Shown: positions 2,034-28,646 of the stretch, one piece after another
Layout: each line of letters opens with the position of its first letter
Numbering within the stretch: position 1 is the first letter of the stretch
Source: a virus
Taxonomy: Duplodnaviria; Caudoviricetes
Length of the DNA stretch: 64,000 nucleotides
Strand: one strand, 5' to 3'
Virus record (IMG/VR): IMGVR_UViG_3300037484_000435
Span: 128,001 to 192,000 of that record
The notes under the pieces: model-generated
The model's database searches: none
What the model saw: only the letters and a program-made list of their open reading frames with translations
What the model was told of the DNA's origin: nothing
Made by a program: the position numbers and the translations under genes

Positions 2034-3065
2034 TTATTGTACTCCTTGTACAGTATTCCTCATATACTCTAAAACCCGCACAGCTTGGGCAGAAGTAAGC
2101 TCCTCTACAGCCTGTAGCGTTTGTGCTTCCGCACCCAGTACCTGCCTAACTAATAGCATTGGATCGGCGTTCGGCCCAAATGCCATCGTCGCGGCTCCCC
2201 TAATTGCACTTATCTGGTGAGACACAATACCAGCACCGGCTGTACCCTGTTGCATCTGGCCCATAGGTGGTGCCATTGGTTGCTGTGCTGGGTACTGTCC
2301 AGAGGGTGGACCCTGCGGGATACTCTGTATTGGCATTTGTGTTGTCGCTGGCGTACCAGGACCATTTGTATATCCTACATTTGGATTAGTCATCTGCGGC
2401 ACAGGTCCCAATGGCTGCTGCTGTTGCTGCGGCGGTGGACCCTGTGGAGGCATCTGCATACCCATATTAGGATTTGGGTTAGGATTAGCCATCTGTGGGG
2501 GAGGCATCATAGTTGACTGTACTCCCTGCGGGGGCATATTATGTGGACCTGGATTAACCACATTAACATTCATCTGTGGTGGTGGGGGCCCAAACTGACT
2601 CGGCCCTTCCCAAGGTGGTGATTCTCCGTCGTCCAAACCGCTCACATTCTCGCTACTCACTCCCCAGAGATGCAAACCAACACCAAACAGTGATGCTGCT
2701 TTTGTAAGGGCTTTAGAAAAAGCACTTTTCATACTGTCTCCAGGGTCATTGCCTATCGCGTGTCCACCCCAACCATCTCTAATAGCAGTTTTTCCTGTAT
2801 CGGGATCCGGTACTTCGAGACGTACCCTTTTAACGACAAAGTTATTAATTACCATTGACTCAACTTCAGTAACACTCCAAGAACAACCGAAAACCTCATT
2901 AAGTCTATTGATTACTTCTGAAGAAGCAACGAAAGACCATTTCTGTCCAGCCCGTCCCTGACGAGTTTCTATCTTATCTGGTGGAAAAGGTTCATATAGT
3001 CCCTTTATTACCTGTTGCATTTTTGGTGTGAGCGTTGCTTCCGTACTTGTTTTTTTCGTAGCCAT
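2034..3065 (-). CDS. Rad52/Rad22 (Sak-like) ssDNA annealing protein with P/Q/G/M-rich low-complexity tail
   Basis: PFPPDKIETRQG..FVASSEVINRLNEVFG..SW..GDSMKSAFSKALTKAASLFGVGLHLW is the Rad52_Rad22 signature. Confidence 0.85.
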   Translation of the reverse strand: MATKKTSTEATLTPKMQQVIKGLYEPFPPDKIETRQGRAGQKWSFVASSEVINRLNEVFGCSWSVTEVESMVINNFVVKRVRLEVPDPDTGKTAIRDGWGGHAIGNDPGDSMKSAFSKALTKAASLFGVGLHLWGVSSENVSGLDDGESPPWEGPSQFGPPPPQMNVNVVNPGPHNMPPQGVQSTMMPPPQMANPNPNPNMGMQMPPQGPPPQQQQQPLGPVPQMTNPNVGYTNGPGTPATTQMPIQSIPQGPPSGQYPAQQPMAPPMGQMQQGTAGAGIVSHQISAIRGAATMAFGPNADPMLLVRQVLGAEAQTLQAVEELTSAQAVRVLEYMRNTVQGVQ

Positions 3066-3118
3066 GTATTACCTCTCCTTTTGTATACGAGCCTTTTATT
3101 GACCTGCTCAGGTCTTAC

Positions 3119-3178
3119 CTAACACCCGCCTTTGCAGTGGGTTACTGGTCTCAACATATAACGTTTTCTACTAACCAT
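3119..3178 (-). CDS. 19-aa micro-ORF / possible leader peptide (MVSRKRYMLRPVTHCKGGC)
   Basis: GGAGGA SD directly upstream of ATG 3178; TAG at 3119-3121. Confidence 0.35.
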   Translation of the reverse strand: MVSRKRYMLRPVTHCKGGC

Positions 3179-3193
3179 TTTGTAATCCTCCTA

Positions 3194-3604
3194 CTACAAT
3201 TTAAAGCCCTCTTCAGGACTTTTTATCAAAGCAAAGTAGTCATCAATCATTTTATCTACTTTTTTATTACCAAACATTTCTCGAAAGTAATCTTCACCAA
3301 CACGCCACGCAAACCCCTCGTGGGGGTCTTGTGCGTTGGTGGCAAAAAGTACATCCAAAACGCGTTCGCCTTGTTGAACTATGTGCTGGTCAAATACAAA
3401 TGCTGTGCACTCGTTCGCTACACTACATTTAAAGTCTGTGTCCTGCCTGTATTCTGGACAAGTGGGCTGACAGTAGCGACCAACAATTTTAGATACTTTA
3501 GCCACATTTATTTGGATAATTCTCCATTCCCAGTATGGGGCTACAACCACATTATCTGCTTTATAATCTAATGAATCTATGAATCTAGACATTTTCTCTC
3601 TCAA
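3194..3604 (-). CDS. hypothetical protein
   Basis: ORF in minus-strand operon; true start may be MSRFID. Confidence 0.6.
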   Translation of the reverse strand: MREKMSRFIDSLDYKADNVVVAPYWEWRIIQINVAKVSKIVGRYCQPTCPEYRQDTDFKCSVANECTAFVFDQHIVQQGERVLDVLFATNAQDPHEGFAWRVGEDYFREMFGNKKVDKMIDDYFALIKSPEEGFKL

Positions 3605-4229
3605 AAAATTTTATTTCTTCTAGGAGTGTTCTTATACTAGTATCAAATGTAACTAGTTGCGGTTCCTCTACATCATTATAAACGACATAGTCAGGACTAA
3701 AAAGGGCAAGTTCAACTTCGGACCTATGCTTTAGGTTGATAAACGAATCTCCTAGCCTACGCTGACGGATTTCTTCGGGAGCCTCTATACCTATGAGTGT
3801 AAACCCTAATCTCTTCATAAGATTATACTCACCGAGAAACCTGACATCATCAACCATAATCAACACATGTTCTTGTGTCAATTCAGGTAGCTTGTTAGTT
3901 ATTAAACCAATAACATTTTCCTCAAGAACATTCTGGAAGACGTCATCACCAAATTCGCGTCTGGCTAGGTCTCCCAACCGTTGCAAGAAGGTTCGTTCTG
4001 CGGATCCGCCTTTATTTCTATGAAAAGCTATCATGCTGGTATACAAGGGCTGGGCAAACTTCAAGATGTACCCAATTGATGCTTCTCCCCCGTATAGGTC
4101 AGTCATACAACCTAAGGCCAGCATCGCAGCAGCGGTTTTACCTGACCCCATCTTGCCACAAAAAGCAAGTTTATGAACTTTTTTACCATTTATTATTTCC
4201 ATACATCCTCCTTTTACCACCTTCCGCAT
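3585..4229 (-). CDS. deoxynucleoside monophosphate kinase
   Basis: P-loop FCGKMGSGKT, ILKFAQPL, RTFLQRLGDLARREFG, VDDVRFLGE (phage dNMP kinase pattern). Confidence 0.8.
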   Translation of the reverse strand: MRKVVKGGCMEIINGKKVHKLAFCGKMGSGKTAAAMLALGCMTDLYGGEASIGYILKFAQPLYTSMIAFHRNKGGSAERTFLQRLGDLARREFGDDVFQNVLEENVIGLITNKLPELTQEHVLIMVDDVRFLGEYNLMKRLGFTLIGIEAPEEIRQRRLGDSFINLKHRSEVELALFSPDYVVYNDVEEPQLVTFDTSIRTLLEEIKFFERENV

Positions 4230-5095
4230 TTAGGACATTTTACCATCGCCGTGTCCTCCGTAACTCCTGCTTTATACCTGAATGAAAAACTGTCCCGCTC
4301 GAATTCATACCCACATTTATCACAAACAAAACCTCCACTAGTGAGGAAGTTGGTTGCCCGAGTAATTATGTCATACATCTCCCCACAGTCTGCTCTCATT
4401 TTTTCCTGATAGGCACGAAGTGCTAACCACTGATCGATATACTTTTTTAGATTATCCCAATGATCGAACATATACATTCTTTTACCCTTATCTCTCATCT
4501 CTAAATAAGGGAGTTTAGTCCAAGGCCACTTAAGTGTTACAACGTGAATACGAGCATCTATATATTTTTCCCAATAAAGATAATTGTCCTCCACAAACAT
4601 CTCAACTTTATACTCTTTCAGTAAATCCAATTTGTCATTTCTAAATTCGTCTTCGTAAATATCACCTGTACAAAGAACCTCAAATTTAACCTTTGGCCCC
4701 AACGCCTGCTTGATAGAATTGATAGCGGCCTGTTTAAACTGGGCTCGGCGTGATGTAATAAATAATAGCGGCTTCTTGTAGCTCTCATAGAGACCACACA
4801 GAGCTTCTACAGCACCATTTACTGGAGGTAGGGCATGATTATACAGAACAGGCTCATATACCACCCTCAATTTACTAGTAGGGACTCCTACAATTTTACC
4901 TATATCGTAATGAATCCATTTGTCCAACGACCAAGGTAATTCTAAATGAGATGTAATAGCATTCCACATCTCGGTAGCAGTATCGAGAACAATCCCGTCT
5001 ATATCAAAAGCAACTGGTAAATGCTCCCCAGGCTCAAAAATCTTTTCAATGGGCACATCAGTAATCTTTGTGAGTTCAATATTAAAAGTATTCAT
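4214..5095 (-). CDS. HAD-family 5'(3')-deoxyribonucleotidase-like protein with C-terminal Zn ribbon
   Basis: AFDIDGIVLD (DxD), FITSR, K..FVEDN; C-terminal CDKC..CPKC. Confidence 0.75.
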   Translation of the reverse strand: MNTFNIELTKITDVPIEKIFEPGEHLPVAFDIDGIVLDTATEMWNAITSHLELPWSLDKWIHYDIGKIVGVPTSKLRVVYEPVLYNHALPPVNGAVEALCGLYESYKKPLLFITSRRAQFKQAAINSIKQALGPKVKFEVLCTGDIYEDEFRNDKLDLLKEYKVEMFVEDNYLYWEKYIDARIHVVTLKWPWTKLPYLEMRDKGKRMYMFDHWDNLKKYIDQWLALRAYQEKMRADCGEMYDIITRATNFLTSGGFVCDKCGYEFERDSFSFRYKAGVTEDTAMVKCPKCGRW

Positions 5096-6134
5096 TTAAT
5101 CCCTCTGGGGTTCCTATTAGTAGTTTGTCTCCAGTATCAATAATCACCAGATTCGACACGCCATACAAAGCAATAGTTTTACCTGGAGGTTTAAAAATAA
5201 GATTGCTGGTGGACTCAATAGAATGCACACCTGCTTGGCCTTCCGGTTGAAATAATCCAGAATCGTAGAGAAGATGCTTTATGGAAACCCAGTTATCTAA
5301 TGTAGACCAAGCAATTTTTGGGATAAGGGCACCGCGTAACTTTCTATCTGTCAAAATAGAAGGCACTACAAAAGAGAACGGAGTTACTTCTAATTTATTC
5401 CAACCCATAATTTGGGACCCTTTTACTTGTAAAGCCTCTCTCAGATAGTGATCGAACGATCGTAAAGATGCTCCGTAAGTTCCTAAATCCCACATCCAAT
5501 TGTTGGCTACCAATTCTTTGGCAGAATCTAAATCAGGCGTAATCTGATACCCTTCCATCGCAACATTTAATGTACTAATTGTCCCCAAGACAGTGTCCTC
5601 GTAAGGGATTCCCATTGTAGTAACTTGTTGCCAATCACCAAAAAAGTAATTCATTCCGGGGGACGGGCCACCTGGGTTCAAACAAACTGCCACCCATTCA
5701 TCTGGGTGCGTCCTTAACCGCGTTGCAATATTTAAAAAATGAAACATTGCTAATTCAGTTGGCCATAAAAATTGGTCAGATGGTGAAACAATTATTGGTT
5801 CGTCGGAAGGAACTTCTTTTATATCTATTAAATACCTAACAGCTTCCCAAATGGCCCATGCTGAACCTTTTTGTGCTGGTAAGGTTAATACATTTGATAC
5901 AGGAATCCCGTAGAGATTTAATGTGTTTTGTTTAATGAGAGAGTCTATAGATTTGCCCGTAGTCACTATAATAAACCGGTCTCCCTGTCCCTCTACTACC
6001 GCAGATAATCTAGCTAAAGTTTCTTCCAATAGTGATAACTCACTGTATACTGGTAAAAATGCTTTAGGTAGTTCCTCGGAGGTTACGGGCCAAAGTTTCG
6101 GTCCAATTTCATCTGCCAATATAATTACATGCAT
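5082..6134 (-). CDS. mannose-1-phosphate guanylyltransferase (ManC)-like protein with degenerate nucleotide-binding loop
   Basis: ILADEIGPKLWPVT..LPKAFL..SLLEETLARL, PSDQ, WSTLDNW, beta-helix tail IALYGVSNLVIIDTGDKLLI; canonical GGxGTRLWP not conserved. Confidence 0.75.
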   Translation of the reverse strand: MHVIILADEIGPKLWPVTSEELPKAFLPVYSELSLLEETLARLSAVVEGQGDRFIIVTTGKSIDSLIKQNTLNLYGIPVSNVLTLPAQKGSAWAIWEAVRYLIDIKEVPSDEPIIVSPSDQFLWPTELAMFHFLNIATRLRTHPDEWVAVCLNPGGPSPGMNYFFGDWQQVTTMGIPYEDTVLGTISTLNVAMEGYQITPDLDSAKELVANNWMWDLGTYGASLRSFDHYLREALQVKGSQIMGWNKLEVTPFSFVVPSILTDRKLRGALIPKIAWSTLDNWVSIKHLLYDSGLFQPEGQAGVHSIESTSNLIFKPPGKTIALYGVSNLVIIDTGDKLLIGTPEGLNEYF

Positions 6135-6168
6135 CCTAATTTTATCCTTATGTTGTTATAATGATAGG

Positions 6169-6828
6169 TCATGTTTGGTGTCTATGATGACCTGAGAGTC
6201 CGTGCTCTTTAATGGCATCGAGATGTTGTTTAGTTGCAAATCCTTTATTTGAGTTCCACCCATATAGGGGAAGCTCCTCATGCAACATATCCATCAGAGC
6301 ATTCCTAGCCGTCTTAGCCACAACAGAAGCCGCAATGCAAGGTTCGAAGAACTCACTAGCACCATCGGCCCGAATTATGGGTATGCCAGAACCGTATAAG
6401 TTTGATGGCAATGTTTCCTGTGTATAACCAAACCCATCAATTATTATGGAAGTGGCTGGGTAATAAATAGAAAAACTAGAAAGGCAAACAGACAGTGCCT
6501 GTAAAATAACCATATCGTGAGTTCTTAAATAATCATCAAATACACCCCAACCTATGGTGAGAAAAGACGACCTCAGTTTTATGTCATCAGAAATCTTGCG
6601 ACATTCTTCTTCACTTAAATCCTTTGCGGGCTGTGTGTACTGAACTTTGGAGTGTGGCTCCACTATGACCGCTGACGCGCAGATGGGCCCAGCAATAGCT
6701 TTACGACCATTAATAGACACACCCACTAATGTTCTGAACCCGACCGTATCATATATCTCGGTCATAGTTAAAAGTTTTTTCTCCCTAAGTTTGTCTAGGA
6801 ACCACGCCATTTCAATAAACCCACTCAT
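6169..6828 (-). CDS. RNase HII-like protein, catalytically degenerate paralog
   Basis: VGVSINGRKAIAGPICASAV (vs GVDEAGRGPLAGPVVAAAV), IIIDG, IAASVVAKTARNALM, YGWNSNKGFATKQH. Confidence 0.8.
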   Translation of the reverse strand: MSGFIEMAWFLDKLREKKLLTMTEIYDTVGFRTLVGVSINGRKAIAGPICASAVIVEPHSKVQYTQPAKDLSEEECRKISDDIKLRSSFLTIGWGVFDDYLRTHDMVILQALSVCLSSFSIYYPATSIIIDGFGYTQETLPSNLYGSGIPIIRADGASEFFEPCIAASVVAKTARNALMDMLHEELPLYGWNSNKGFATKQHLDAIKEHGLSGHHRHQT

Positions 6829-8038
6829 CGCAAAGAAAGGTTTGAAAACTTTCTATAAGCTTTAACTTCTTGCAACTGGGCTCAATTTTTAATGTTTTAC
6901 CGACTATTGAACCTAATTTAAAGCGTCCCGTAATACGCCTACCTAGGATGAAATATATTTTCCCCAAAAACTTTACCTTATCGTAACGTTGGAATCCCTT
7001 AATAAATCTAGACGCTGTATTACGAATGTGGCTTCGAGCACCTTTAAATAATTTTCTATTTTGTTTGCGAACTTGTTTTACTAGGTGTTGAGTCCCACTA
7101 CGAATTTGGTTTATACCACCTACTATAGCAAAAGCATCATTTTGATGTGACTTTACTAAACCTAATTGTTCTCTAGTATTTTTAGTAATATAACCAAAGG
7201 TTTCTTCCACATCACCACACAATTCCTGCAACTTCAAAATTAGACGTTTCTTAACAATTGACATAAAAGTCTCCGCTTTAAATCCTTTGGTAACCTTAAC
7301 TTTAAGTTGAATAGAGCCCGCATGTAGCTTATCATGACAACTCTTACATAACGTGATTAGGTTATCGGGCCTATCAGAACCACCTTGACTGCGTTGTAAG
7401 ATATGATGAACATTAAGCCGCGGTTCTTTAGAACAACCTTTACAATGCTGGCAAATGTGCCCGTCTCGATGGAGCACATAAGCTCTAACATTATCAAACC
7501 CCAACTGATCACCTTTTTGATATTGGTTACCTCTAATGCTAGGGTTCTTAATACGCTGAATGTCAAAGTTAGCTGTCTCAATTACAATCTTTGTAACAGA
7601 TAAAATTGATATTACTTTTTGGATAATCCTAATATGAGAATCCAATTTATGTTGTATTGATGGGGCAAGAGGATTTCGTTTAAACTTCTCTATCCTATTA
7701 AGGAACCTGCATTTACGGTGCCTAGTCTTCCTAGAACGCCGAGTTTTTCGATACATACGACGTTCTGTTAACAATTTAGAAACGTCTTTTCTAAGCAAAA
7801 CTTCTGCTGAAAATAACTCCTGTTTCTCAGTAACCGCTGACAATCCAATATGCTCATAACCTGAGTCTACTCCTAACGTTATATGTTGCCTATAGCCTGA
7901 ACTCCCGTAAAGTAATTGTATTGTGAATGGTGTACGCTTAACAACCTTAGCCTTACCCCTCTTAAGTAAAATTCTGGCTTTAGGTGGTGTAGTAGGCATT
8001 AAAGGTTTTCCCTGTTGATTATGAACATAAACAAACAT
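6812..8038 (-). CDS. iscB: RNA-guided endonuclease IscB (OMEGA system)
   Basis: N-terminal PLMP domain, RuvC-I GVDSG, Arg-rich bridge helix RRMYRKTRR, RuvC-II IETANFD, HNH HHILQRSQGGSDRPDNLITLCKSCH, RuvC-III SHQNDA. Confidence 0.95.
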   Translation of the reverse strand: MFVYVHNQQGKPLMPTTPPKARILLKRGKAKVVKRTPFTIQLLYGSSGYRQHITLGVDSGYEHIGLSAVTEKQELFSAEVLLRKDVSKLLTERRMYRKTRRSRKTRHRKCRFLNRIEKFKRNPLAPSIQHKLDSHIRIIQKVISILSVTKIVIETANFDIQRIKNPSIRGNQYQKGDQLGFDNVRAYVLHRDGHICQHCKGCSKEPRLNVHHILQRSQGGSDRPDNLITLCKSCHDKLHAGSIQLKVKVTKGFKAETFMSIVKKRLILKLQELCGDVEETFGYITKNTREQLGLVKSHQNDAFAIVGGINQIRSGTQHLVKQVRKQNRKLFKGARSHIRNTASRFIKGFQRYDKVKFLGKIYFILGRRITGRFKLGSIVGKTLKIEPSCKKLKLIESFQTFLCDEWVY

Positions 8039-8049
8039 TATTGTAATTA

Positions 8050-8267
8050 CTCCTCGTTACTAATGTAACTTGGGTTAGGGCCTCATCGCTAATGTTATCA
8101 TAGTTTGTTATGTTATGTACACTACCCCTGACCCTCAGGATTGTTTAATATATAACCACAGAGCAGGGAACTTGAGGAGCATTCCAAGGTGTGATGGCCA
8201 TAATAACGTAGCCCTGTATTTCAGGACTAAAGCTAATCAATTTTTTTTTATTACGTGGTCAATTGAT
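8050..8267 (-). ncRNA. omegaRNA scaffold of IscB (guide is the adjacent 5' sequence, approx 8268-8285)
   Basis: Immediately upstream of iscB; 5' stem AATCAATT/AATTGATT, then TTGATTAGC..GGCTACGTT..CACCTTGGAATGC..AGTTCC..CTCTG..AAACA..ATAACATTAGCGA, the usual omegaRNA landmarks; exact ends approximate. Confidence 0.85.
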
Positions 8268-8898
8268 TAAATATTTCCTTCGCCCTGCATAAGTGTGTAT
8301 ATGACAACCAATTCTCTTTTTCTTTATTTGCTCTCATCAAATATGATGGATGATACGTAGTTACTAGACTAGCTCGCCGTCTTATCCCATCAGAACAAGC
8401 ATACTCGAAAAAAGGTAACCGTTCACCCAAAATAGACCCCAACGAATCTGATTTTTTTAATAAACCCAACGAATAAGCAGCAACCTTACCGAATACCAGA
8501 ATCAATTTAGGCTGTATGATTTCGAGTTGGCGGAATAAGAAAGGCTGACACGCATGGACCTCATCGTATGCAGGTGTTATAGCGTTTGATTTCCCCTCGT
8601 GCATAGGTCTTGATTTGATTGCGTTCGTAATGTATAGTTGCTCTCTCACAAATCCAGCACCACTAATCATCCCTTCCCAATATTTGCCCGCCTTTCCAAC
8701 ATATGGGCGTGGCACAGGTTTGGCATAAAACTCCTCTTCTCCCGCCGCCTCCGAGATTGACATCACTAAAGCATCAGCAGGACCCTCACCAAATACTCGA
8801 CAAGGGCCCTGCTGGGATATATAACATCTCTTACAAGACTCAACTTCCTTTTTTAGTCTTTCGAGACCTCTTTGTGCCTCCATCAGCTCGTTTGTCAT
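8251..8898 (-). CDS. udg: uracil-DNA glycosylase, family 4
   Basis: CKRC, VFGEGPADA, SEAAGEEE (GEAPG variant), YITNAIKSRP, IIQPKLILVFG, TYHPSYLMR. Confidence 0.9.
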   Translation of the reverse strand: MTNELMEAQRGLERLKKEVESCKRCYISQQGPCRVFGEGPADALVMSISEAAGEEEFYAKPVPRPYVGKAGKYWEGMISGAGFVREQLYITNAIKSRPMHEGKSNAITPAYDEVHACQPFLFRQLEIIQPKLILVFGKVAAYSLGLLKKSDSLGSILGERLPFFEYACSDGIRRRASLVTTYHPSYLMRANKEKENWLSYTHLCRAKEIFNQLTT

Positions 8899-9454
8899 CC
8901 GTTACCTCGTCATCAATAAGACCGTCTGAATCAAGCATATCTTGAACGACATCTCCTTTGGCTTGTACCACTATGGCACCATCCAGCCCGTCTACTTTAT
9001 CTTTCAGTATTGCGGCTCTTGCACACTCTCCAATTTTTGTAAATACATCCAACCCGTAACGAGCAATGATTGCAGAATGTCCTACTATATCGTGTGGTTT
9101 AAGTGCCCACTCGGGATTCCCATCGTCACCAATCTTGTCTTCGCCATCCTTGTCTTTCTTGACAACACAGCTTTCAAGGGCCGAGTCTAGCATTGCGGTT
9201 TGTTCCACTGAGGAAAGTTCATTCCAAAGTTCATACGTGATTAGAAACACATAATCTTTCTCTGTCAACGTATTCCATACGCCCGTTACTCTCTTAACTA
9301 TTGCAACCTGCCCAGATTCTATTTCGGCAGGTGACGCTTTATCCCGATACAAAAAGACCATACTCGCTGTCGCAATTTCTGTGTGGTATTTACCTATCAG
9401 TTCCTCTGCTAAATCCGTAATTTCTTTTCCTGCTGTCCAAAATTCCATTCTCAT
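8840..9454 (-). CDS. phage putative metallopeptidase-like protein lacking HExxH
   Basis: FLYRDKA..DYVFLI..WNEL..QTAMLDSALES..W.LKPHD..IIARYG resembles the family pattern; the HELxH position reads SALES. Confidence 0.55.
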   Translation of the reverse strand: MRMEFWTAGKEITDLAEELIGKYHTEIATASMVFLYRDKASPAEIESGQVAIVKRVTGVWNTLTEKDYVFLITYELWNELSSVEQTAMLDSALESCVVKKDKDGEDKIGDDGNPEWALKPHDIVGHSAIIARYGLDVFTKIGECARAAILKDKVDGLDGAIVVQAKGDVVQDMLDSDGLIDDEVTDDKRADGGTKRSRKTKKGS

Positions 9455-9500
9455 TCTCCTTTTGTCGTATTTTTTTATCTACGCATAAAATCATCTCTAT

Positions 9501-9530
9501 ACTATATAACTAGTACACAAATCCATCTCT
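9501..9530 (-). promoter_or_regulatory. conserved 30-bp promoter/operator-like motif, copy 1
   Basis: minus strand AGAGATGGATTTGTGTACTAGTTATATAGT; 4 near-identical copies in window. Confidence 0.7.
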
Positions 9531-9702
9531 ATTTATCATCCGTATAAAATTCATCAACATCATGACACCCGCTACGTAACATACGTTGCCAATTTAAAGC
9601 TTCCAAAGCCAATTCAAAATAATCAGCTTCATCATCGTAGTCCACAGATATTCTTCTAAAAAAGTCCATAGCCTCAACAATTTTTTCTCTTGTGGTTTTC
9701 AT
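9529..9702 (-). CDS. small hypothetical protein (57 aa)
   Basis: Hand-translated MKTTREKIVEAMDF...; GAGG SD; stop overlaps motif copy 1. Confidence 0.6.
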   Translation of the reverse strand: MKTTREKIVEAMDFFRRISVDYDDEADYFELALEALNWQRMLRSGCHDVDEFYTDDK

Positions 9703-9707
9703 ATACC

Positions 9708-9977
9708 TCAGATATCCTCCTCGTCATAATCGGACGTAGGTTCATCTTCTTCTTCTTCTTCCACTTCCCTTATTATATCGGGAGCTCCACGGCGATTAGA
9801 CTCCCCACAAAAAGGACAAAACCACACCCCGTCCTCGCCGTCACCAAACCTACCATTAAATCCTATACCCACATCTCTGCTTTCTTGGTCTGGCTCAATG
9901 GAGTCTGGGTGCCGGATAACTGAAAATATACCGTCACAATTACCACAATAAAGTTTTGTTAATTCGGTTATTTCCAT
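9708..9977 (-). CDS. small Zn-ribbon protein with acidic tail
   Basis: CGNC..CPFC, EEEEEDE tail, GGAGG SD. Confidence 0.65.
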   Translation of the reverse strand: MEITELTKLYCGNCDGIFSVIRHPDSIEPDQESRDVGIGFNGRFGDGEDGVWFCPFCGESNRRGAPDIIREVEEEEEDEPTSDYDEEDI

Positions 9978-9993
9978 TTCCTTGGTTCCTCCT

Positions 9994-10206
9994 TTAATCC
10001 CACTCTAACGTGCAATCAATACCATCAAGGGTACCATCCAATATTTCCTCTGCCCTCTTTAGTCTTCTACTTCGTTCTGGATTAGACCCATCGTCTTCTT
10101 TTACCATGGCACGAATTTTAAAATATGCTGTAGAGACTATCTTCCTGTATTCCCCTATCGACCTCATTCTTTTTTCCTCCCCCTCAACAAAATTCCTAGA
10201 AAACAC
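9994..10206 (-). CDS. hypothetical protein (likely start MRSIGEY)
   Basis: ORF track; G-rich SD before internal ATG. Confidence 0.55.
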   Translation of the reverse strand: MFSRNFVEGEEKRMRSIGEYRKIVSTAYFKIRAMVKEDDGSNPERSRRLKRAEEILDGTLDGIDCTLEWD

Positions 10207-10300
10207 CCCCCTTCTTCCTTCATCTGATGGTTGTTTTCCAAAAAATCCGTTGTAATAAATTCATCTGTCTTCGCAATAAATATTAACCATTTTATTTCAC

Positions 10301-10597
10301 CTAAGGTTTGCATACTAACTCCTTTGCTTCCTCGATATACCGTTGTACAAACTCATCAAATATAGGACCTTCAACAACGCGGGCCCTCATGGTTTTAAAG
10401 TCATCCTCAAGCCACTCAGATGATGCCTCACTAACCATTGTATCGATGTAATCAATCGCCATTAAGGTGAGGGCTTTTTTATACACCCTCAAATTAACAA
10501 AATTTTTCTCTCTCATACAAATTAAAGGCTCAGAAATAGAACCTACTAACGTTGCTGGTATTTCTTCACTACACATACTAATCTCCGAATTTAGCAT
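10301..10597 (-). CDS. hypothetical protein
   Basis: ORF track, operon context. Confidence 0.55.
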   Translation of the reverse strand: MLNSEISMCSEEIPATLVGSISEPLICMREKNFVNLRVYKKALTLMAIDYIDTMVSEASSEWLEDDFKTMRARVVEGPIFDEFVQRYIEEAKELVCKP

Positions 10598-10772
10598 CTA
10601 ACCGTTTGACTTCTTGAAGAGCTATCATTGCCCTCATACCATCGCCGCCTTCAATCCATTTTCCAGCTTGGTCTTGCAAGGCCGTCCGTATCTCTGGGTA
10701 CTCTTCCGCGGAACAATTTACCAATTTACCTTGGTATACTGCATTTAATGCTTGAATAATATAATCCAACAT
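10578..10772 (-). CDS. hypothetical protein
   Basis: ORF track, GGAGG SD. Confidence 0.55.
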   Translation of the reverse strand: MLDYIIQALNAVYQGKLVNCSAEEYPEIRTALQDQAGKWIEGGDGMRAMIALQEVKRLDAKFGD

Positions 10773-11414
10773 TTAACCTCCGAACTCCTTCCCCAGCTCC
10801 CATATCAGCTTCTGTGTATCTTCAGCCAGCTTATCGTAAGTCTCGTATACCTTTCCGACTTTGGTCCCTAGGTTACTGAGGTCAGCCATAAAGTCATCCC
10901 AAGTTTTATAACGGAACTGGTGTCCTGACACATGGTTTATATCCTTAAATTTCTGTTCAGGAAAACAAGTGTAGGTTACATGCACATTGGTATCATCACC
11001 GAACGTGTTTACTCCTGAAGCACTATTCGTAAATACTATTTCTAATCGGCCCCCGTCGTTCCGCAACTCAATAACAAAACGAAAGTTGTACATGTTAAGA
11101 AAACCACCTGTACTACTAATCCTAGGCCTTCCTAGATTGACATCTGTTACCATGAACAATGCTAGGTTATCAATGCCACTGTGGTGGAGCCCTAAATAAT
11201 TGGGGTGCTCCCTTGTAATGGTTTCATTTATTTTGTCAGCTATATGTTGAGCTAGATTATCTAGCACCTCAACAACCTGCCCCAGAGATAATTTTTGTTC
11301 TTCAGTTTTGCTCATTTTGTTTCCTCTATAACCCTGCCTTTCGCAGGTGGTAATGTAGTGTGGATTCAGGGATTCCCAAAAATCGATGAACCTGTTTCCA
11401 AGTAGATAATTCAC
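10773..11414 (-). CDS. hypothetical protein (likely start MSKTEE)
   Basis: ORF track; annotated N-terminus overlaps upstream HEG. Confidence 0.6.
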   Translation of the reverse strand: MNYLLGNRFIDFWESLNPHYITTCERQGYRGNKMSKTEEQKLSLGQVVEVLDNLAQHIADKINETITREHPNYLGLHHSGIDNLALFMVTDVNLGRPRISSTGGFLNMYNFRFVIELRNDGGRLEIVFTNSASGVNTFGDDTNVHVTYTCFPEQKFKDINHVSGHQFRYKTWDDFMADLSNLGTKVGKVYETYDKLAEDTQKLIWELGKEFGG

Positions 11415-12318
11415 TTTTTAGTTGTAAGAGGAATTCCCTCTCATACCTCAAACTATTCTTTTTAATTTCGTTATCCTGATATGCCTTTTTAATGTTTTCA
11501 AATTCTTTATACTTTCTATCCAAATGTAATGTAGAATTTTTCCACATAATCTCTCCTAGGGCCAACACCGAACCCCAAGAATGCAAGTGGAGAACGTGGG
11601 TTCGAGGAGACTGCTGGTAAGAATAACAAACCACATCTAAAACATTAGTGAGATAGTCTTTTAATTGCTGAATAAAAATTGGGTTACTGGCAAAATGCAA
11701 CACTGGTAATCCCGTTTTGTCCCTCCCTATATGTCCGTCACCGTCAAAATAACCTCTGATAAAATGTGGAAGCAATTCTTTTGGCAAAAAATAAGGAAAA
11801 GTAATTTTCAAGGCTTTAGGAGACAAACACCCTAGACCTTCTAGTTTTTCTATGATGTTCTTGCTAGAAATAACTAACGTAACTTGGTACGACAGAAAAC
11901 CCTTTTTTGTTACCTTAGTATCGTAGTATAACGGCCTTGGGCACGACAGGCACTCTTGGATTTCATGTAGCAACGCTTCGTCCTTTGCTCCCAAGGCAAT
12001 GCGTAACATGTACCTTTGTTTAGATTCATTTTTCGAAACATAGCCGTCAGCATAAATAAAACCTAATATATAGGCTTTTTTCTCGTGGTCTATCTCATCA
12101 AAAAAAGATTCATCAAGTGGGTACTTACGGCACTCTTTACTTCCTGCCCTCCGCGGTATTCCCAATTCCACCAAGGTATCCCACACGAATTTTTCAGACA
12201 ATTTGTGTGTCTCTGCAAGCATTTTGATTGTTGAGCCAGATATGTATTCTGTTGCTAATACTGGCTTTATGCCCTCATAAAATTTTCTAGAGTGTAATGT
12301 TCTCATTGCGTCCTCCAA
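11326..12318 (-). CDS. free-standing LAGLIDADG homing endonuclease (likely start ATG 12306)
   Basis: KAYILGFIYADG and HFIRGYFDGDG motifs; terminal HTH-like segments. Confidence 0.9.
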   Translation of the reverse strand: MEDAMRTLHSRKFYEGIKPVLATEYISGSTIKMLAETHKLSEKFVWDTLVELGIPRRAGSKECRKYPLDESFFDEIDHEKKAYILGFIYADGYVSKNESKQRYMLRIALGAKDEALLHEIQECLSCPRPLYYDTKVTKKGFLSYQVTLVISSKNIIEKLEGLGCLSPKALKITFPYFLPKELLPHFIRGYFDGDGHIGRDKTGLPVLHFASNPIFIQQLKDYLTNVLDVVCYSYQQSPRTHVLHLHSWGSVLALGEIMWKNSTLHLDRKYKEFENIKKAYQDNEIKKNSLRYEREFLLQLKSELSTWKQVHRFLGIPESTLHYHLRKAGL

Positions 12319-12349
12319 TATACTAGGTAATGGTATAGTATATAGAAGG
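12312..12349 (-). promoter_or_regulatory. RBS-sequestering hairpin upstream of LAGLIDADG gene
   Basis: CCTTC-T-ATATACTA pairs with TAGTATAT-T-GGAGG, burying the SD. Confidence 0.6.
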
Positions 12350-12357
12350 TTAGTAAA

Positions 12358-13194
12358 TCACACATCCATTTCTTCTTTCAAGTCAAAATAAAATGAGGGT
12401 GAGAGGGGCTCTACCAAATCCCAAATCATCCAAATCAATCTACGGAGTTCACTCTCAGTATCCGCCCGCAAACGCTCATCAAAAATGTGGCGGAGTGAAC
12501 GGACATTAACCCACATGGTTCTTTCGGTGGAAGAGAATACAGGGATAACCCCCCGTGCTTGTTCTTTTGTCATCGGAACATACTCAGACTTAGTTTTATC
12601 CCACTCCTCTGGAGTACACCCTGTTCCCTTTACGGAGGGCTGGGGAGAACGAAGATATTCGTAGAAATTTTGGCAACTCCTAAAATGCTTGCTCCAGCTC
12701 TGGTATCTCTCCCTAGCAAAATCCTCGTAATCAATATTATCAAGTATAGGGTATACGTAAGCAGGCCCAGCTGTTACAAAACGGCGACTACGACTGATAT
12801 GACCAGAATGCCTGTATCTACTTAACTGAGCTCCCGCTGCCTTGCTTAACCCTTTTATATTTATTGCATACTGAACTATTTCAAATGGCGTAAAATGCTT
12901 CTGACTAATAAGTTTCTTATTTAACTTTATAGCTCGCTCACTATCATTCTCTAGTTTTTCTGTAGCACCGTAGCTTACTCCAGCGGATATTGCTGGTAGT
13001 TGTTCTATTTCTTCCCATCCTATAAACCCATCTTTATCCACGGATTCACACCGATTAATATAACCAAACCCCGGCATAATTATTTTATTCACTGGCATGG
13101 TAATAGCCCGTAGCTCCACTGAAGGCTCCGAATTTCCAAAGAGACCCTTTCGAAGAGGTTTCCACTTGTCTTTTACACGCTCAAACTTTGGCAT
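12358..13194 (-). CDS. thyX: FAD-dependent thymidylate synthase ThyX (divergent)
   Basis: KHFTPFE, QLSRYRHSGHISRSRRF (RHRx7S variant), EQARGVIP, NVRSLRHIFDERL, ESELR. Confidence 0.8.
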   Translation of the reverse strand: MPKFERVKDKWKPLRKGLFGNSEPSVELRAITMPVNKIIMPGFGYINRCESVDKDGFIGWEEIEQLPAISAGVSYGATEKLENDSERAIKLNKKLISQKHFTPFEIVQYAINIKGLSKAAGAQLSRYRHSGHISRSRRFVTAGPAYVYPILDNIDYEDFARERYQSWSKHFRSCQNFYEYLRSPQPSVKGTGCTPEEWDKTKSEYVPMTKEQARGVIPVFSSTERTMWVNVRSLRHIFDERLRADTESELRRLIWMIWDLVEPLSPSFYFDLKEEMDV

Positions 13195-25818: not shown

Positions 25819-27729
25819 CTAATGGACCCAATAGGGCCCAAATTTTGCATCCACTTTACACGGACACACACTCGCAGGAATCATATCATAAAATGCCCGC
25901 GTCATTCCACCAACTAAAATTTCTTTAGCTTCCTGAACTACTTCTTTCTTCACCATTGTTTGTATCTCATCATGCACAACGGCCCATACATAGGCATTAC
26001 TATTGCCAAATCTGTTGTTTAATCCCTCATAAACATATTTGAGGGCCAATTTAGTCATTGAGGCTGACGAACCTTGAATTGTATGATTCACGGCCTGTCT
26101 TCTTACACCTGCTTTTATCTTCTCATAATCAGGGTCTGAGTTCGGGGGTAAGTTATAATATCTACGCCTACCCATTAAGGTCAAACTAAAACCCTTCTCC
26201 ACCGCCTTGTTACCTTCGACATCAATATAACGCTTCAAAGCGGGGTAAAACTTGAAGAAGCCCTGAATAACTGTCTTGGCTTCATCCTCAGGTATGTTAG
26301 CTACTTGAGCCAATCTTTTATAACTTCCACCGTAGGAGGTTAAGAAGTTAGCAGACTTACAAATACCACGTAGCCTTTTCCATTTTTCTTCTTCTTCTGT
26401 TATCTCGCTAAACCTTTGTTCATCTTGTTTCCTGTCTAAGGATTTCAAGATAGACCTCAGCTTATCCTTGTCAATTCCATATACCCGACACGTGGTGTTA
26501 TTATGTATATCCTCATTATTACGGAAGGCTTCCTGCATATTAACCTCATTACTGAGGTAGGATAACACCCGCAATTCCTGCCCGCCAAAGTCAGCTCCTA
26601 GACATACATAGCCTTCTGGAGCAACAAACCCGCGTCGATATTTACCCAAAGCGGGAATGTTCTGCATATTTGGGTCTTCAGATGCAAAACGTCCTGTTGA
26701 GGTTGAGCACTGTTTAAAACTAGCGTGCATACGACCAGTAACTCTGTTGATTCTGGCCAGCATCTTCTCACCGTAAGAGGTAAAAAACTTTCTTAGTTCT
26801 CGGTATTCCAATAGAGGTTCAATTATTGGGTGTGAACCACTAATCTTTTCCAAGATGTCCGCTCCAGTTGATTCTACATTGAGGCCTAAATCTCTCAAGG
26901 CTGGCCCCAATTGTGCGGGGCTGTCTACAGAAATCCCACAGAAATTATCAAAGACCGATTTCTGTTTCTCTAGGGGTTTGAGGTAGGCGTTTATAATGAT
27001 ACGTAACTCATTAAGTCTTTCCTCAGTTTCCTGTAAAAGTTTTCGCCAATGCTCCAAATCCAAATCAACACCGTGATATTCCATCATGGCCACAGCAGGT
27101 ATAATATCAAATTCTAACTGTGATACTGGTATGAGGCCATCTTGTTGTAACTTAAATAGTTGGCCCCAGTAGATGGGCTGTAGAACATGCACATCTCTTG
27201 CAGAATACTGTAGCTGTTCTTCTGAAAAACCTGTCCGAACATACCCTGAGTAAAAACCTTTCCTCAGAGCTTTATTCATATCTTTCGTTGTAAACTTAGT
27301 GTATTTGGGGGCCACAACATCCAACTTCTGGTAACCGTTGGTAGGAAAATCTTTACCAGCACCCAAGATTTTCTCGCTAATCATAGTATCATACAGATTA
27401 ACGAGTTCAATCCCTGTCGAAGCTTTTATAATCTTGAAATCAAACCCGATGTTATGGCCTATTTTTAAACAATCCTTTTTGCTACAAATGTCCTTTAGCA
27501 ACCTATAAACTGGGGAGGTTGTATCCCTCCGTAAAATTGCGTTCTCTACCGTACAGTCAATCACCACATTACTCTGGCCATTTGAAAACTGCCAAAGCAA
27601 TAATTCTGCTGTGTGTGGGTCCAAACCTGTTGTTTCTGTATCTGTTCCAATTAAAGGGGCTCTAACAAATTCATGCAGAGCCCCGAGTATATCCTCATCC
27701 GTTTTCACGTATGTATACGGTAATTCCAT
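25819..27729 (-). CDS. polA: family A DNA polymerase (3'-5' exonuclease plus polymerase)
   Basis: DTETTGLD, GHNIGFD, TGRFASEDPNMQNIP, motif A ADFGGQELR, motif B KSANFLTSYG, motif C VHDE. Confidence 0.95.
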   Translation of the reverse strand: MELPYTYVKTDEDILGALHEFVRAPLIGTDTETTGLDPHTAELLLWQFSNGQSNVVIDCTVENAILRRDTTSPVYRLLKDICSKKDCLKIGHNIGFDFKIIKASTGIELVNLYDTMISEKILGAGKDFPTNGYQKLDVVAPKYTKFTTKDMNKALRKGFYSGYVRTGFSEEQLQYSARDVHVLQPIYWGQLFKLQQDGLIPVSQLEFDIIPAVAMMEYHGVDLDLEHWRKLLQETEERLNELRIIINAYLKPLEKQKSVFDNFCGISVDSPAQLGPALRDLGLNVESTGADILEKISGSHPIIEPLLEYRELRKFFTSYGEKMLARINRVTGRMHASFKQCSTSTGRFASEDPNMQNIPALGKYRRGFVAPEGYVCLGADFGGQELRVLSYLSNEVNMQEAFRNNEDIHNNTTCRVYGIDKDKLRSILKSLDRKQDEQRFSEITEEEEKWKRLRGICKSANFLTSYGGSYKRLAQVANIPEDEAKTVIQGFFKFYPALKRYIDVEGNKAVEKGFSLTLMGRRRYYNLPPNSDPDYEKIKAGVRRQAVNHTIQGSSASMTKLALKYVYEGLNNRFGNSNAYVWAVVHDEIQTMVKKEVVQEAKEILVGGMTRAFYDMIPASVCPCKVDAKFGPYWVH

Positions 27730-28646
27730 TAAGGAGCCTCCAACAATGCTTTCCTGTGCTCAACTATATCTGGTAATTCAGACAGTATATCAGTAAGTTC
27801 CGCCTCTCCACAAGCCATTATTTTTGTGTTGTCCAACAAAAAATGTCCCTCTTTACTCTCCATTACCTTAGGTAAAACTTGTGGGCGTATAATAGGGATA
27901 AGTTTTTGTATTAACTCCGCATTTGGCATTCCAGACGCACTAGAAACATTATATACCCCGCGAAAATCTTTTATACCTAAAAGATTAGCAATCATAACAC
28001 AGGCTTGCCGAACCAAAATATAGTCCCTTTTCTGCTGGCCGTGCTTAACTAGCAATGGTTGGTCAGACAAAAGAGTCTGAATAATAAATGTGAGCGGGTC
28101 GGCCATAGGATGTAAGAAATCTCTTTTGCCCACTATGATAGACGGACGCAAAATTACTAGCGGTATCTTCAAGTTCTTACACACTGAAGTTACATATTTC
28201 TCAGCAATAAGCTTATCCGTAATGAACATATTGGGACTTTCCCAGTTGATTATAGATGTCTCCTTAATTAAACCAGTTTTAGGTTTGTAAACCATATCCG
28301 AAGAGACGTAAACAAGCCGTGCACCATCCAACACTGACATAATAGGGAGCATACGTACCATGGCATGCATTAACCACGAGTACCGCACATGCGGCGTGAC
28401 ATTCGGGTCATTAGCAAAAAAGAAAGGGAGCCAGACTACATTATCCGGCGTGAATGATTTTAAGGCAGAGGACACAGAAGATTCATTAGTAGCGTCCCCA
28501 AACATAATCTGTAGGTTAGGGCTATTCTCTAGAGGGGAAGAAAAACTGTAGTTATCATATACCGCTACAGACTCTCCCCGTAACAATAATTCTTGGGCGA
28601 GATTCCTCCCAAGGAACCCCGCCCCTCCAATAAGTAAGTGTTTCAT
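27729..28646 (-). CDS. NAD-dependent epimerase/dehydratase-like SDR lacking catalytic Tyr
   Basis: LLIGGAGFLG, YVSSDMVY, FITDK at the YxxxK position, QKRDYI. Confidence 0.75.
   Translation of the reverse strand: MKHLLIGGAGFLGRNLAQELLLRGESVAVYDNYSFSSPLENSPNLQIMFGDATNESSVSSALKSFTPDNVVWLPFFFANDPNVTPHVRYSWLMHAMVRMLPIMSVLDGARLVYVSSDMVYKPKTGLIKETSIINWESPNMFITDKLIAEKYVTSVCKNLKIPLVILRPSIIVGKRDFLHPMADPLTFIIQTLLSDQPLLVKHGQQKRDYILVRQACVMIANLLGIKDFRGVYNVSSASGMPNAELIQKLIPIIRPQVLPKVMESKEGHFLLDNTKIMACGEAELTDILSELPDIVEHRKALLEAP

Follow-up and report, generated by a model that had tools for sequence, protein, structure and literature searches.

Bases 128,001-192,000 of a phage genome (Caudoviricetes; IMG/VR record IMGVR_UViG_3300037484_000435) were analysed. 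This stretch of 64,000 nucleotides is called the window, and positions refer to it unless a genome position is indicated. The genome has 545,322 bp and was rated complete by CheckV. The subject is an IscB gene with its omegaRNA, situated between udg and an RNase HII-like gene (rnhB). Every gene around iscB is on the minus strand, and the reading order is metallopeptidase, udg, omegaRNA, iscB, RNase HII-like gene, nucleotidyl-transferase. The features are as follows (an asterisk in a protein sequence denotes the stop codon).

8840-9454, minus strand: phage metallopeptidase gene.
8251-8898, minus strand: udg, coding for a family 4 UDG (Pfam UDG, 1e-21); the last four codons and the stop (QLTT*, 8251-8265) are read from stem 1 of the omegaRNA in place of the ancestral GVVPRQT*, according to a C-terminal alignment with 15 homologues and the restored tail.
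8268-8287, minus strand: flank that encodes the guide; it consists of the final codons of the original udg (...GCGAAGGAAATATTTA) and adjoins scaffold base 1 on its 5' side.
8074-8267, minus strand: omegaRNA scaffold (Rfam RF02033, HEARO), full length, 194 nt (cmscan, 118 bits; a whole-genome search agrees).
8039-8073, minus strand: 35-nt spacer from omegaRNA to iscB with the ribosome-binding site GAGGAG, as read from the sequence.
6812-8038, minus strand: iscB coding sequence, 408 amino acids, RuvC split by HNH, with D58, E154, H211/H212 and D301 (Pfam RRXRR and HNH; matches to PDB IscB).
6811-8267, minus strand: whole inserted cassette, 1,457 bp, from the gap-free join of 8268 to 6810 against the related contigs L089, L091 and L092.
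6805-6810, minus strand: predicted target-adjacent motif (TAM) ATGGCG, i.e. the RNase HII start codon plus three bases, the first flank sequence beyond the insert.
6169-6810, minus strand: RNase HII-like gene (Pfam RNase_HII), reading MAWFLDKL... from the ATG at 6810, which lies one base past the stop of iscB; N-termini of relatives read MAWFLD(K/R)L...

The IscB protein was matched by Pfam RRXRR at 4e-60 (residues 3-176) and HNH at 3e-11 (residues 199-240), and it is homologous to solved IscB structures (PDB chains, E 3e-43 to 7e-45). Alignment with solved IscB placed the catalytic residues D58 in LGVDSG, E154 in IETAN, H211/H212 in NVHHIL and D301 in QNDAF. These data agree with a first-pass annotation, made from the DNA letters alone, which had described an intact IscB with RuvC D/E/D and HNH residues. 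The omegaRNA reported there was likewise recovered far beyond chance: the HEARO match, covering model positions 1-211, scored 118 bits (E 5e-25), above the gathering score of 83, and ends 35 nt before the iscB ATG on the same strand. Because scaffold base 1 (8267) falls within the last codons of udg, the UDG ends in QLTT*. Thus the proposal that the 5' stem of the omegaRNA lies inside udg, provides it with a substitute tail and leaves the 3' end of udg as guide was borne out. A scan for promoters and terminators gave no excess over shuffled sequence, and no omegaRNA promoter could be assigned. By all criteria that can be tested on sequence, the cassette is a member of the IscB-omegaRNA (OMEGA/HEARO) family. 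The structurally solved OgeuIscB-omegaRNA (PDB 7UTN, 7XHT, 8CSZ) is homologous across PLMP, RuvC, bridge-helix and HNH (E 3e-43) and also uses a HEARO-family omegaRNA. However, the phage protein is smaller (408 versus 496 amino acids) with a shorter C-terminal, TAM-interacting region, and identity is low outside the N-terminus; a differing TAM is expected.

Empty sites in relatives and the edges of the insertion

UDG homologues with 71-77% identity were located on phage-like contigs of up to 647 kb. In all eight related contigs that were looked up, udg was directly joined to the RNase HII gene with an overlap of 17-35 nt, and iscB was absent. The empty site was compared at the nucleotide level in L089, L091 and L092, and gene maps were used for the contigs that carry the UDG homologues P0002, P0003, P0004, P0007 and P0008 and for the 129.7-kb contig of P0005. 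The empty junction of the first three reads ...AAGGAAATA(T/A/C)TAG, followed immediately by ATGGC(T/A)TGGTT... When position 8268 of the window was joined to 6810, the product aligned to these three sites with zero gaps and 136-144 identities in 180 positions. The join gives a UDG tail KEIFNGVVPRQT; the UDG of the relative P0003 ends in KEIFNGVVPR. In the alignment of 15 homologues the tails of the relatives follow ...AKEI(F/L)(N/D)G(L/M/V)V(S/P)(G/R)..., and the window UDG ends in ...AKEIFNQLTT*. Homology to the empty sites ends exactly at 8268 and the omegaRNA scaffold begins at 8267. Since the join aligns without gaps and restores a tail like those of the relatives, the insert spans 6811-8267. 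Shared A/AT bases leave an ambiguity of -1 to +2 nt in its boundary. The flanks rejoin without gap, i.e. the insertion was scarless and without target duplication. Within this margin the alignments showed that the cassette is a discrete 1,457-bp insertion which extends from scaffold base 1 of the omegaRNA to one base past the iscB stop.

The first-pass annotation had held that the empty site can be reconstructed and that both flanking genes are kept. Natural empty sites in relatives did align to the reconstructed junction, and the reading frames of udg and the RNase HII gene stay open. As judged from these frames, the insertion costs udg only a variable 7-residue tail, and RNase HII is left intact. 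Translation from the ATG at 6810 starts with MAWFLDKLREKKLL where relatives have MAWFLD(K/R)L(K/R)EGKLL, which places the RNase HII start there and not at the ATG at 6828 assumed before. The search of relatives, which had been suggested as a check, thus returned empty sites; the junction sequence originally proposed was not matched. It joined 8268 to 6828 and was rejected, as it requires 36 gap columns against the three natural empty sites whereas the 8268/6810 join requires none; the right boundary actually lies 18 nt further, at 6811. Accordingly, the tail supported by relatives is NGVVPRQT* instead of NEWVY*.

With the insert edge at 6811, the EWVY* tail of IscB is its own and is not shared with the udg of the empty allele, as had been thought. 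IscB ends in ...TFLCDEWVY*, its conserved core ends in ...LIESFQTFL, and homologues keep ...LLESFxTFL followed by short variable tails. A stop codon borrowed by IscB from udg was considered and discarded; the homologue tails and the gap-free join argue otherwise. Taken together, the initial observation held for IscB, the omegaRNA, the lack of a transposase and the presence of an empty site, and was corrected with respect to the exact junction, the restored tail, the RNase HII start and the TAM.

The cassette therefore shows presence and absence at one site: empty in eight related contigs, filled in the window and in a second sample (see below). Further searches did not enlarge this set. A UDG search of viral contigs returned no relative, an RNase HII search of viral contigs only proteins of 29-37% identity, and in a UDG alignment scan of metagenome contigs the best match had 45% identity and no further empty sites appeared. 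Megablast of window 5800-9500 against a phage collection gave no match.

The guide, the predicted TAM and a paralogous cassette

In the relatives udg and the RNase HII gene are directly joined; therefore the guide spells the uninterrupted site. Assuming a guide length of 16-20 nt, the reconstructed target of the native guide is ...GGAAATATTTA with ATGGCG directly 3' of it. The sole perfect match of the guide in the phage genome is its own locus, and none of four guides checked has a second target. The guide match is followed by ATGGCG in the reconstructed empty allele and by ATCAAT in the filled allele; therefore the element would not target itself. The reconstruction showed that, as far as sequences tell, the guide-encoding and TAM-side flanks are brought together only in cassette-free genomes. 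Given the insert edge at 6811, the predicted TAM is ATGGCG, not ATGAGT. The expectation that the motif after the target begins with ATG and is supplied by the downstream RNase HII start codon was supported; the specific ATGAGT was not, the actual flank being ATGGCG. Relatives read ATGGCT or ATGGCA at this position.

A second locus bears on this prediction. In the whole genome there are three IscB genes and four HEARO RNAs. Compared with the locus IscB, its two paralogues have 67% and 58% protein identity, and the three share 58-67% identity pairwise. The cassette with the 67%-identical IscB (cassette C, genome 490,898-492,403, 1,506 bp) has a 20-nt tail after IscB. A relative of its nadD flank, L145 (84% identical in nadD), is without cassette C. 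The filled locus reads ...TATATGGAGGTAACGT, then omegaRNA, IscB and the 20-nt tail, then ATGGATTGG; in the empty L145 ...CATATGGGGGTAACAT is joined directly to ATGGATTGG. Hence cassette C is bounded by ...GGAGGTAACGT and ATGGAT, and L145 reads ...GGGGGTAACAT followed by ATGGAT. Here, too, the boundary coincides with scaffold base 1 of the omegaRNA. As both the locus cassette and cassette C rejoin at ATGG, two paralogous cassettes abut an ATGG start codon, and ATGG is the predicted TAM. For cassette D (genome ~27045-28484) the genome contig scan yielded no relative; ATGA is found at 14 and 28 nt past its stop codon. Just upstream of cassette C lies a 120-aa open reading frame without Pfam match (L141:2493-2855, genome 490,493-490,855), a separate insertion which is also absent from L145.

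The arrangement resembles that of GstIscB from Geobacillus stearothermophilus (ISGst5). GstIscB cuts donor joints and requires the TAM TTCAT (ATGAA in iscB sense), which its TnpA needs as well; the mutations D58A/H209A/H210A inactivate it (Meers et al., 10.1101/2023.03.14.532601). Both proteins are compact IscBs of about 400 amino acids with matching catalytic numbering (D58, HH near 210). In both, the omegaRNA is 5' of iscB, the guide derives from flanking sequence beyond the element, and the TAM comes from the opposite flank and is ATG-initial in iscB sense (Gst ATGAA; phage ATGG, predicted). In both the nuclease is aimed at the element-free joint, for the phage as deduced from sequence. Unlike the phage cassette, the Gst elements can be recognised by their left and right ends, a TnpA encoded in the genome mobilises them, and the target is the excised donor joint on a sister chromosome. 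The phage cassettes come without TnpA or end hairpins, the right end comprises only 1-20 nt, and the sole available targets would be other phage genomes.

Transposition, homing or decay

Next, the transposition machinery was considered. No match to Y1 TnpA (PF01797, E<=1) and no serine recombinase was detected in the 545-kb genome; most control genomes match in either case. This extends the earlier failure to see tnpA to the rest of the genome. When the two ends were folded as single-stranded DNA, for either strand, the result was no better than for shuffled sequences (z -0.02 to -0.47), in line with the first reading, which had seen no GC-rich IS200/605 subterminal hairpin at either end. Because the right end is one base past the iscB stop, there is no room for a left-end hairpin; a weak 6-bp hairpin is present within the 3' coding sequence of iscB, so the absence of end hairpins is likely, not certain. 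Dispersed copies had been named as a finding that would speak for transposition. Other copies do exist, but they are diverged (58-67% amino acid identity), and near-identical ones are absent. By this divergence the intragenomic copies are old paralogues, not recent products of transposition. Of four IS200/IS605 features tested, transposase, end hairpins and near-identical copies were thus lacking in the sequence, and scarless insertion by a short conserved motif was present.

This last feature is the one expected if the cassette were an ordinary non-autonomous ISC (IS200/IS605-type) element, placed in trans by a Y1 TnpA of the host, with an IscB that is only 'restorative' after excision. The insertion is scarless and without target duplication, and in left-end orientation the motifs are CGCCAT at the locus cassette and ATCCAT at cassette C, that is (C)CAT; GstIscB elements use TTCAT (10.1101/2023.03.14.532601). 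Most IscB genes, moreover, are without a neighbouring tnpA (Goltsman et al., PMC9755519). Nevertheless, the phage genome is without tnpA, a right end one base past the stop leaves no space for a left-end hairpin while the ends fold like shuffled sequence, and intragenomic copies with 58-67% identical proteins do not look like recent transposition. We consider this explanation unlikely.

We favour, with about even confidence, a transposase-less IscB-omegaRNA element at the udg/RNase HII junction which would act by RNA-guided homing or by elimination of rivals. Read-through transcription from udg would yield an omegaRNA with the last 16-20 nt of the original udg as 5' guide. IscB-omegaRNA would recognise the guide sequence only when the RNase HII start (ATGG...) follows, i.e. 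in cassette-free genomes. Upon co-infection IscB would cut the empty allele at the udg/rnhB junction, and repair from the filled genome would copy the cassette together with some flank. Alternatively, the cut rival genome would simply be destroyed. RNA-guided homing, as a proposed mechanism, fits the insertion geometry.

The filled allele was encountered a second time, in a hot-spring metagenome of another study (run X2). There, a contig of 1,607 nt spans 6780-8387 and crosses both junctions, with exactly 31 letters on the RNase HII side; it differs from the window at 6 letters and lacks one A in the stem-1 loop. A second contig extends to 8799 with 1 difference, so that 6780-8799 overall has 7 differing letters and 1 gap (~99.6% identity). 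The next contig has 17 differences in 161 nt (8807-8967) and is then unalignable with the window. Among the four differences in iscB three are synonymous and one is K175E. The share of sampled words was 0.73 for 6400-8700 versus 0.18 for 3001-13000, at a depth of 2 at which uncovered parts prove nothing; the sampled words suggest that only the cassette patch is shared with X2. As assembled, the filled allele exists in a second genetic background, whose sequence shows an abrupt break about 600 bp upstream of the insertion. Such a break could come from co-conversion during homing and just as well from ordinary phage mosaicism; boundaries of sequence exchange are known places for nuclease genes (PMC10448857). 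Runs X3 and X4 contained short pieces only, either iscB alone or RNase HII alone. A contig joining 8268 to 6810 was found in none of the four runs, and contigs drop rare variants. In run X1, the probable source sample, a second contig of 164 nt (window 6546-6709) at about half the depth has 13 differences in the RNase HII gene; therefore a related strain co-occurs.

The alignment of X2 to the window also breaks down at the slot between the metallopeptidase gene and udg (window ~8840-8900). This slot differs between relatives (L089:701-2282; L092:1462-3041): two of them have an N6/N4 methyltransferase and an EcoO109I-like restriction enzyme, another has a 408-aa LAGLIDADG-like gene, and the window has nothing inserted.

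Several points weigh against the homing reading. Of 16 guide positions, 3-4 are mismatched in the sites of L089, L091 and L092, the two adjoining the predicted TAM among them, and the flanks of these contigs are only 76-80% identical to the window. Because of these mismatches and the low flank identity, they are poor homing targets; their TAM-adjacent variants TTAG, ATAG and CTAG look resistant. No guide-matching empty allele was present in any data set searched. Scarless insertion beside (C)CAT is also the expected product of a TnpA acting in trans. Finally, since both cassette sites sit just before start codons, ATG(G) is explicable by selection for harmless positions; ATGG may reflect such selection for insertion before a start codon rather than TAM specificity.

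Another reading is a domesticated weapon, an IscB-omegaRNA kept mainly to destroy co-infecting relatives that have an uninterrupted udg/rnhB junction, with little or no copying of the cassette. Its targeting geometry would be identical to that of homing, and at 76-80% identity the relatives are too diverged for efficient gene conversion. A jumbo-phage intron endonuclease is reported to act in this manner (PMC11620839), and the genome is rich in such nucleases (3 IscB, 1 IsrB-like, 3 TnpB). Yet the mismatches of the known relatives beside the TAM count against a weapon as well, and a near-identical cassette in a different flank background in X2 points to transfer, not to killing alone. As the main function we regard killing as quite improbable.

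A further possibility is that the cassette is an inert relic, fixed and inactive and merely not yet decayed. The failure to find a guide-matching empty allele in any data set is in keeping with this, and the same genome carries a solo omegaRNA without iscB, from which it follows that decay does occur. On the other hand, the open reading frame is intact with all catalytic residues present, the omegaRNA fits the family model from end to end, and of the between-sample differences in iscB three are synonymous and one is non-synonymous. The cassette is also missing from all eight relatives; therefore its gain is recent on the scale of the lineage. An inert relic appears very unlikely to us.

Returning to the mobile, RNA-guided element which we favour, its distribution among the sequences at hand behaves like that of a free-standing phage homing endonuclease gene (T4 SegF/SegB; intronless homing, PMC13565253). 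In both cases a nuclease gene is wedged between conserved phage genes, present in some relatives and absent in others, co-oriented, tightly packed and near a boundary of sequence exchange. The difference is that the phage cassette would recognise its target by RNA-DNA pairing plus a short TAM, not by protein alone, and that self and non-self would be set by the insertion itself and not by substitutions in nearby genes. A close conceptual parallel is 'transposon non-restorative homing', where TnpB spreads IS605 through a plasmid population without TnpA (PMC13565253, section 6.1, Table 1). The logic is exactly the one proposed here, with cleavage of the orthologous empty site on a co-resident replicon by an OMEGA nuclease and copying of the element through repair; however, this was shown for TnpB on plasmids, and IscB in phages was only a theoretical possibility in that 2026 review. 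Protein-only homing endonuclease genes had been noted nearby from the sequence, and a free-standing LAGLIDADG homing endonuclease gene was indeed found at window 11326-12318 on the minus strand (Pfam LAGLIDADG_3, 9e-13).

Other OMEGA elements of the genome and implications

The genome holds more candidate elements of this kind. The best of the four HEARO matches (129 bits) is a full-length solo omegaRNA on the minus strand at genome 483,408-483,617 (L143:3408-3617); no iscB is located behind it, and tblastn detected no remnant of one. It is followed by 82 nt, a 54-aa zinc-ribbon open reading frame starting ATGGAA and a convergent tnpB. The solo omegaRNA could be a miniature omegaRNA-only element or a trans guide for the IscB at a distance of 7 kb. 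There are also three genes for TnpB (domains OrfB_IS605 and Cas12f1-like TNB), at genome 482.0-483.1 kb, 493.35-494.44 kb (L141:5350-6435) and ~463.9 kb. The tnpB between nadD and pncB is missing in the relative L145, where these two genes overlap. Its insert has about 30 nt from the 3' end of nadD on either side, thus the element seems to carry a substitute nadD tail. A 339-aa protein on the minus strand (genome 470,976-471,995; L144:1976-2995) has an RRXRR domain and no HNH, and is therefore IsrB-like; no Rfam RNA match adjoins it. Related huge-phage contigs (P0061, P0063, P0064, P0066) carry IscB proteins 61-67% identical to the locus IscB at other sites, adjoining ClpP, LAGLIDADG and group II intron genes; P0061 and P0063, the closest IscB homologues, were placed by gene maps of their contigs. 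Some of these contigs come from the same samples as the UDG relatives, and one such IscB sits on the 129.7-kb contig whose own udg/rnhB junction is empty. A 16-mer together with the 8 bases after it recurs near the two ends of the phage genome, at positions 11 and 545,188, and may mark a terminal repeat, although the classification of the record is linear, with no end repeats.

Cases of this kind were known before, since IscB genes of viruses have been described; tnpA is rarely found close to IscB genes (PMC9755519). What the locus adds is a base-precise target, agreement on ATGG between two paralogues, a gene overlap that was split with both genes kept, and a filled allele in a second sample. 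In the literature searched we found no experimental demonstration of phage-to-phage non-restorative homing for IscB; it was proposed on paper (PMC13565253). The locus provides a concrete, testable system for this, with a native guide, a base-precise target, a predicted TAM backed by a second paralogue and natural variants which look resistant. A compact 408-aa nuclease with a simple predicted ATGG-type TAM could also interest tool developers.

The case matters for the question of how IscB elements persist and spread, as most IscB genes are without a nearby transposase. Tentatively, and with less than even confidence, we propose that this megaphage lineage hosts a transposase-less OMEGA community (3 IscB, 1 IsrB-like, 3 TnpB, 1 solo omegaRNA) which may act between co-infecting phages as genes for RNA-programmed homing or exclusion, the TAM of IscB possibly being the downstream start codon ATGG. 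At the locus described here, the element appears to have separated two genes that overlapped by 20 nt and to have kept both working, as both frames are open. If true, a start-codon TAM would let IscB elements invade gene junctions, even overlapping ones, without inactivating the neighbours.

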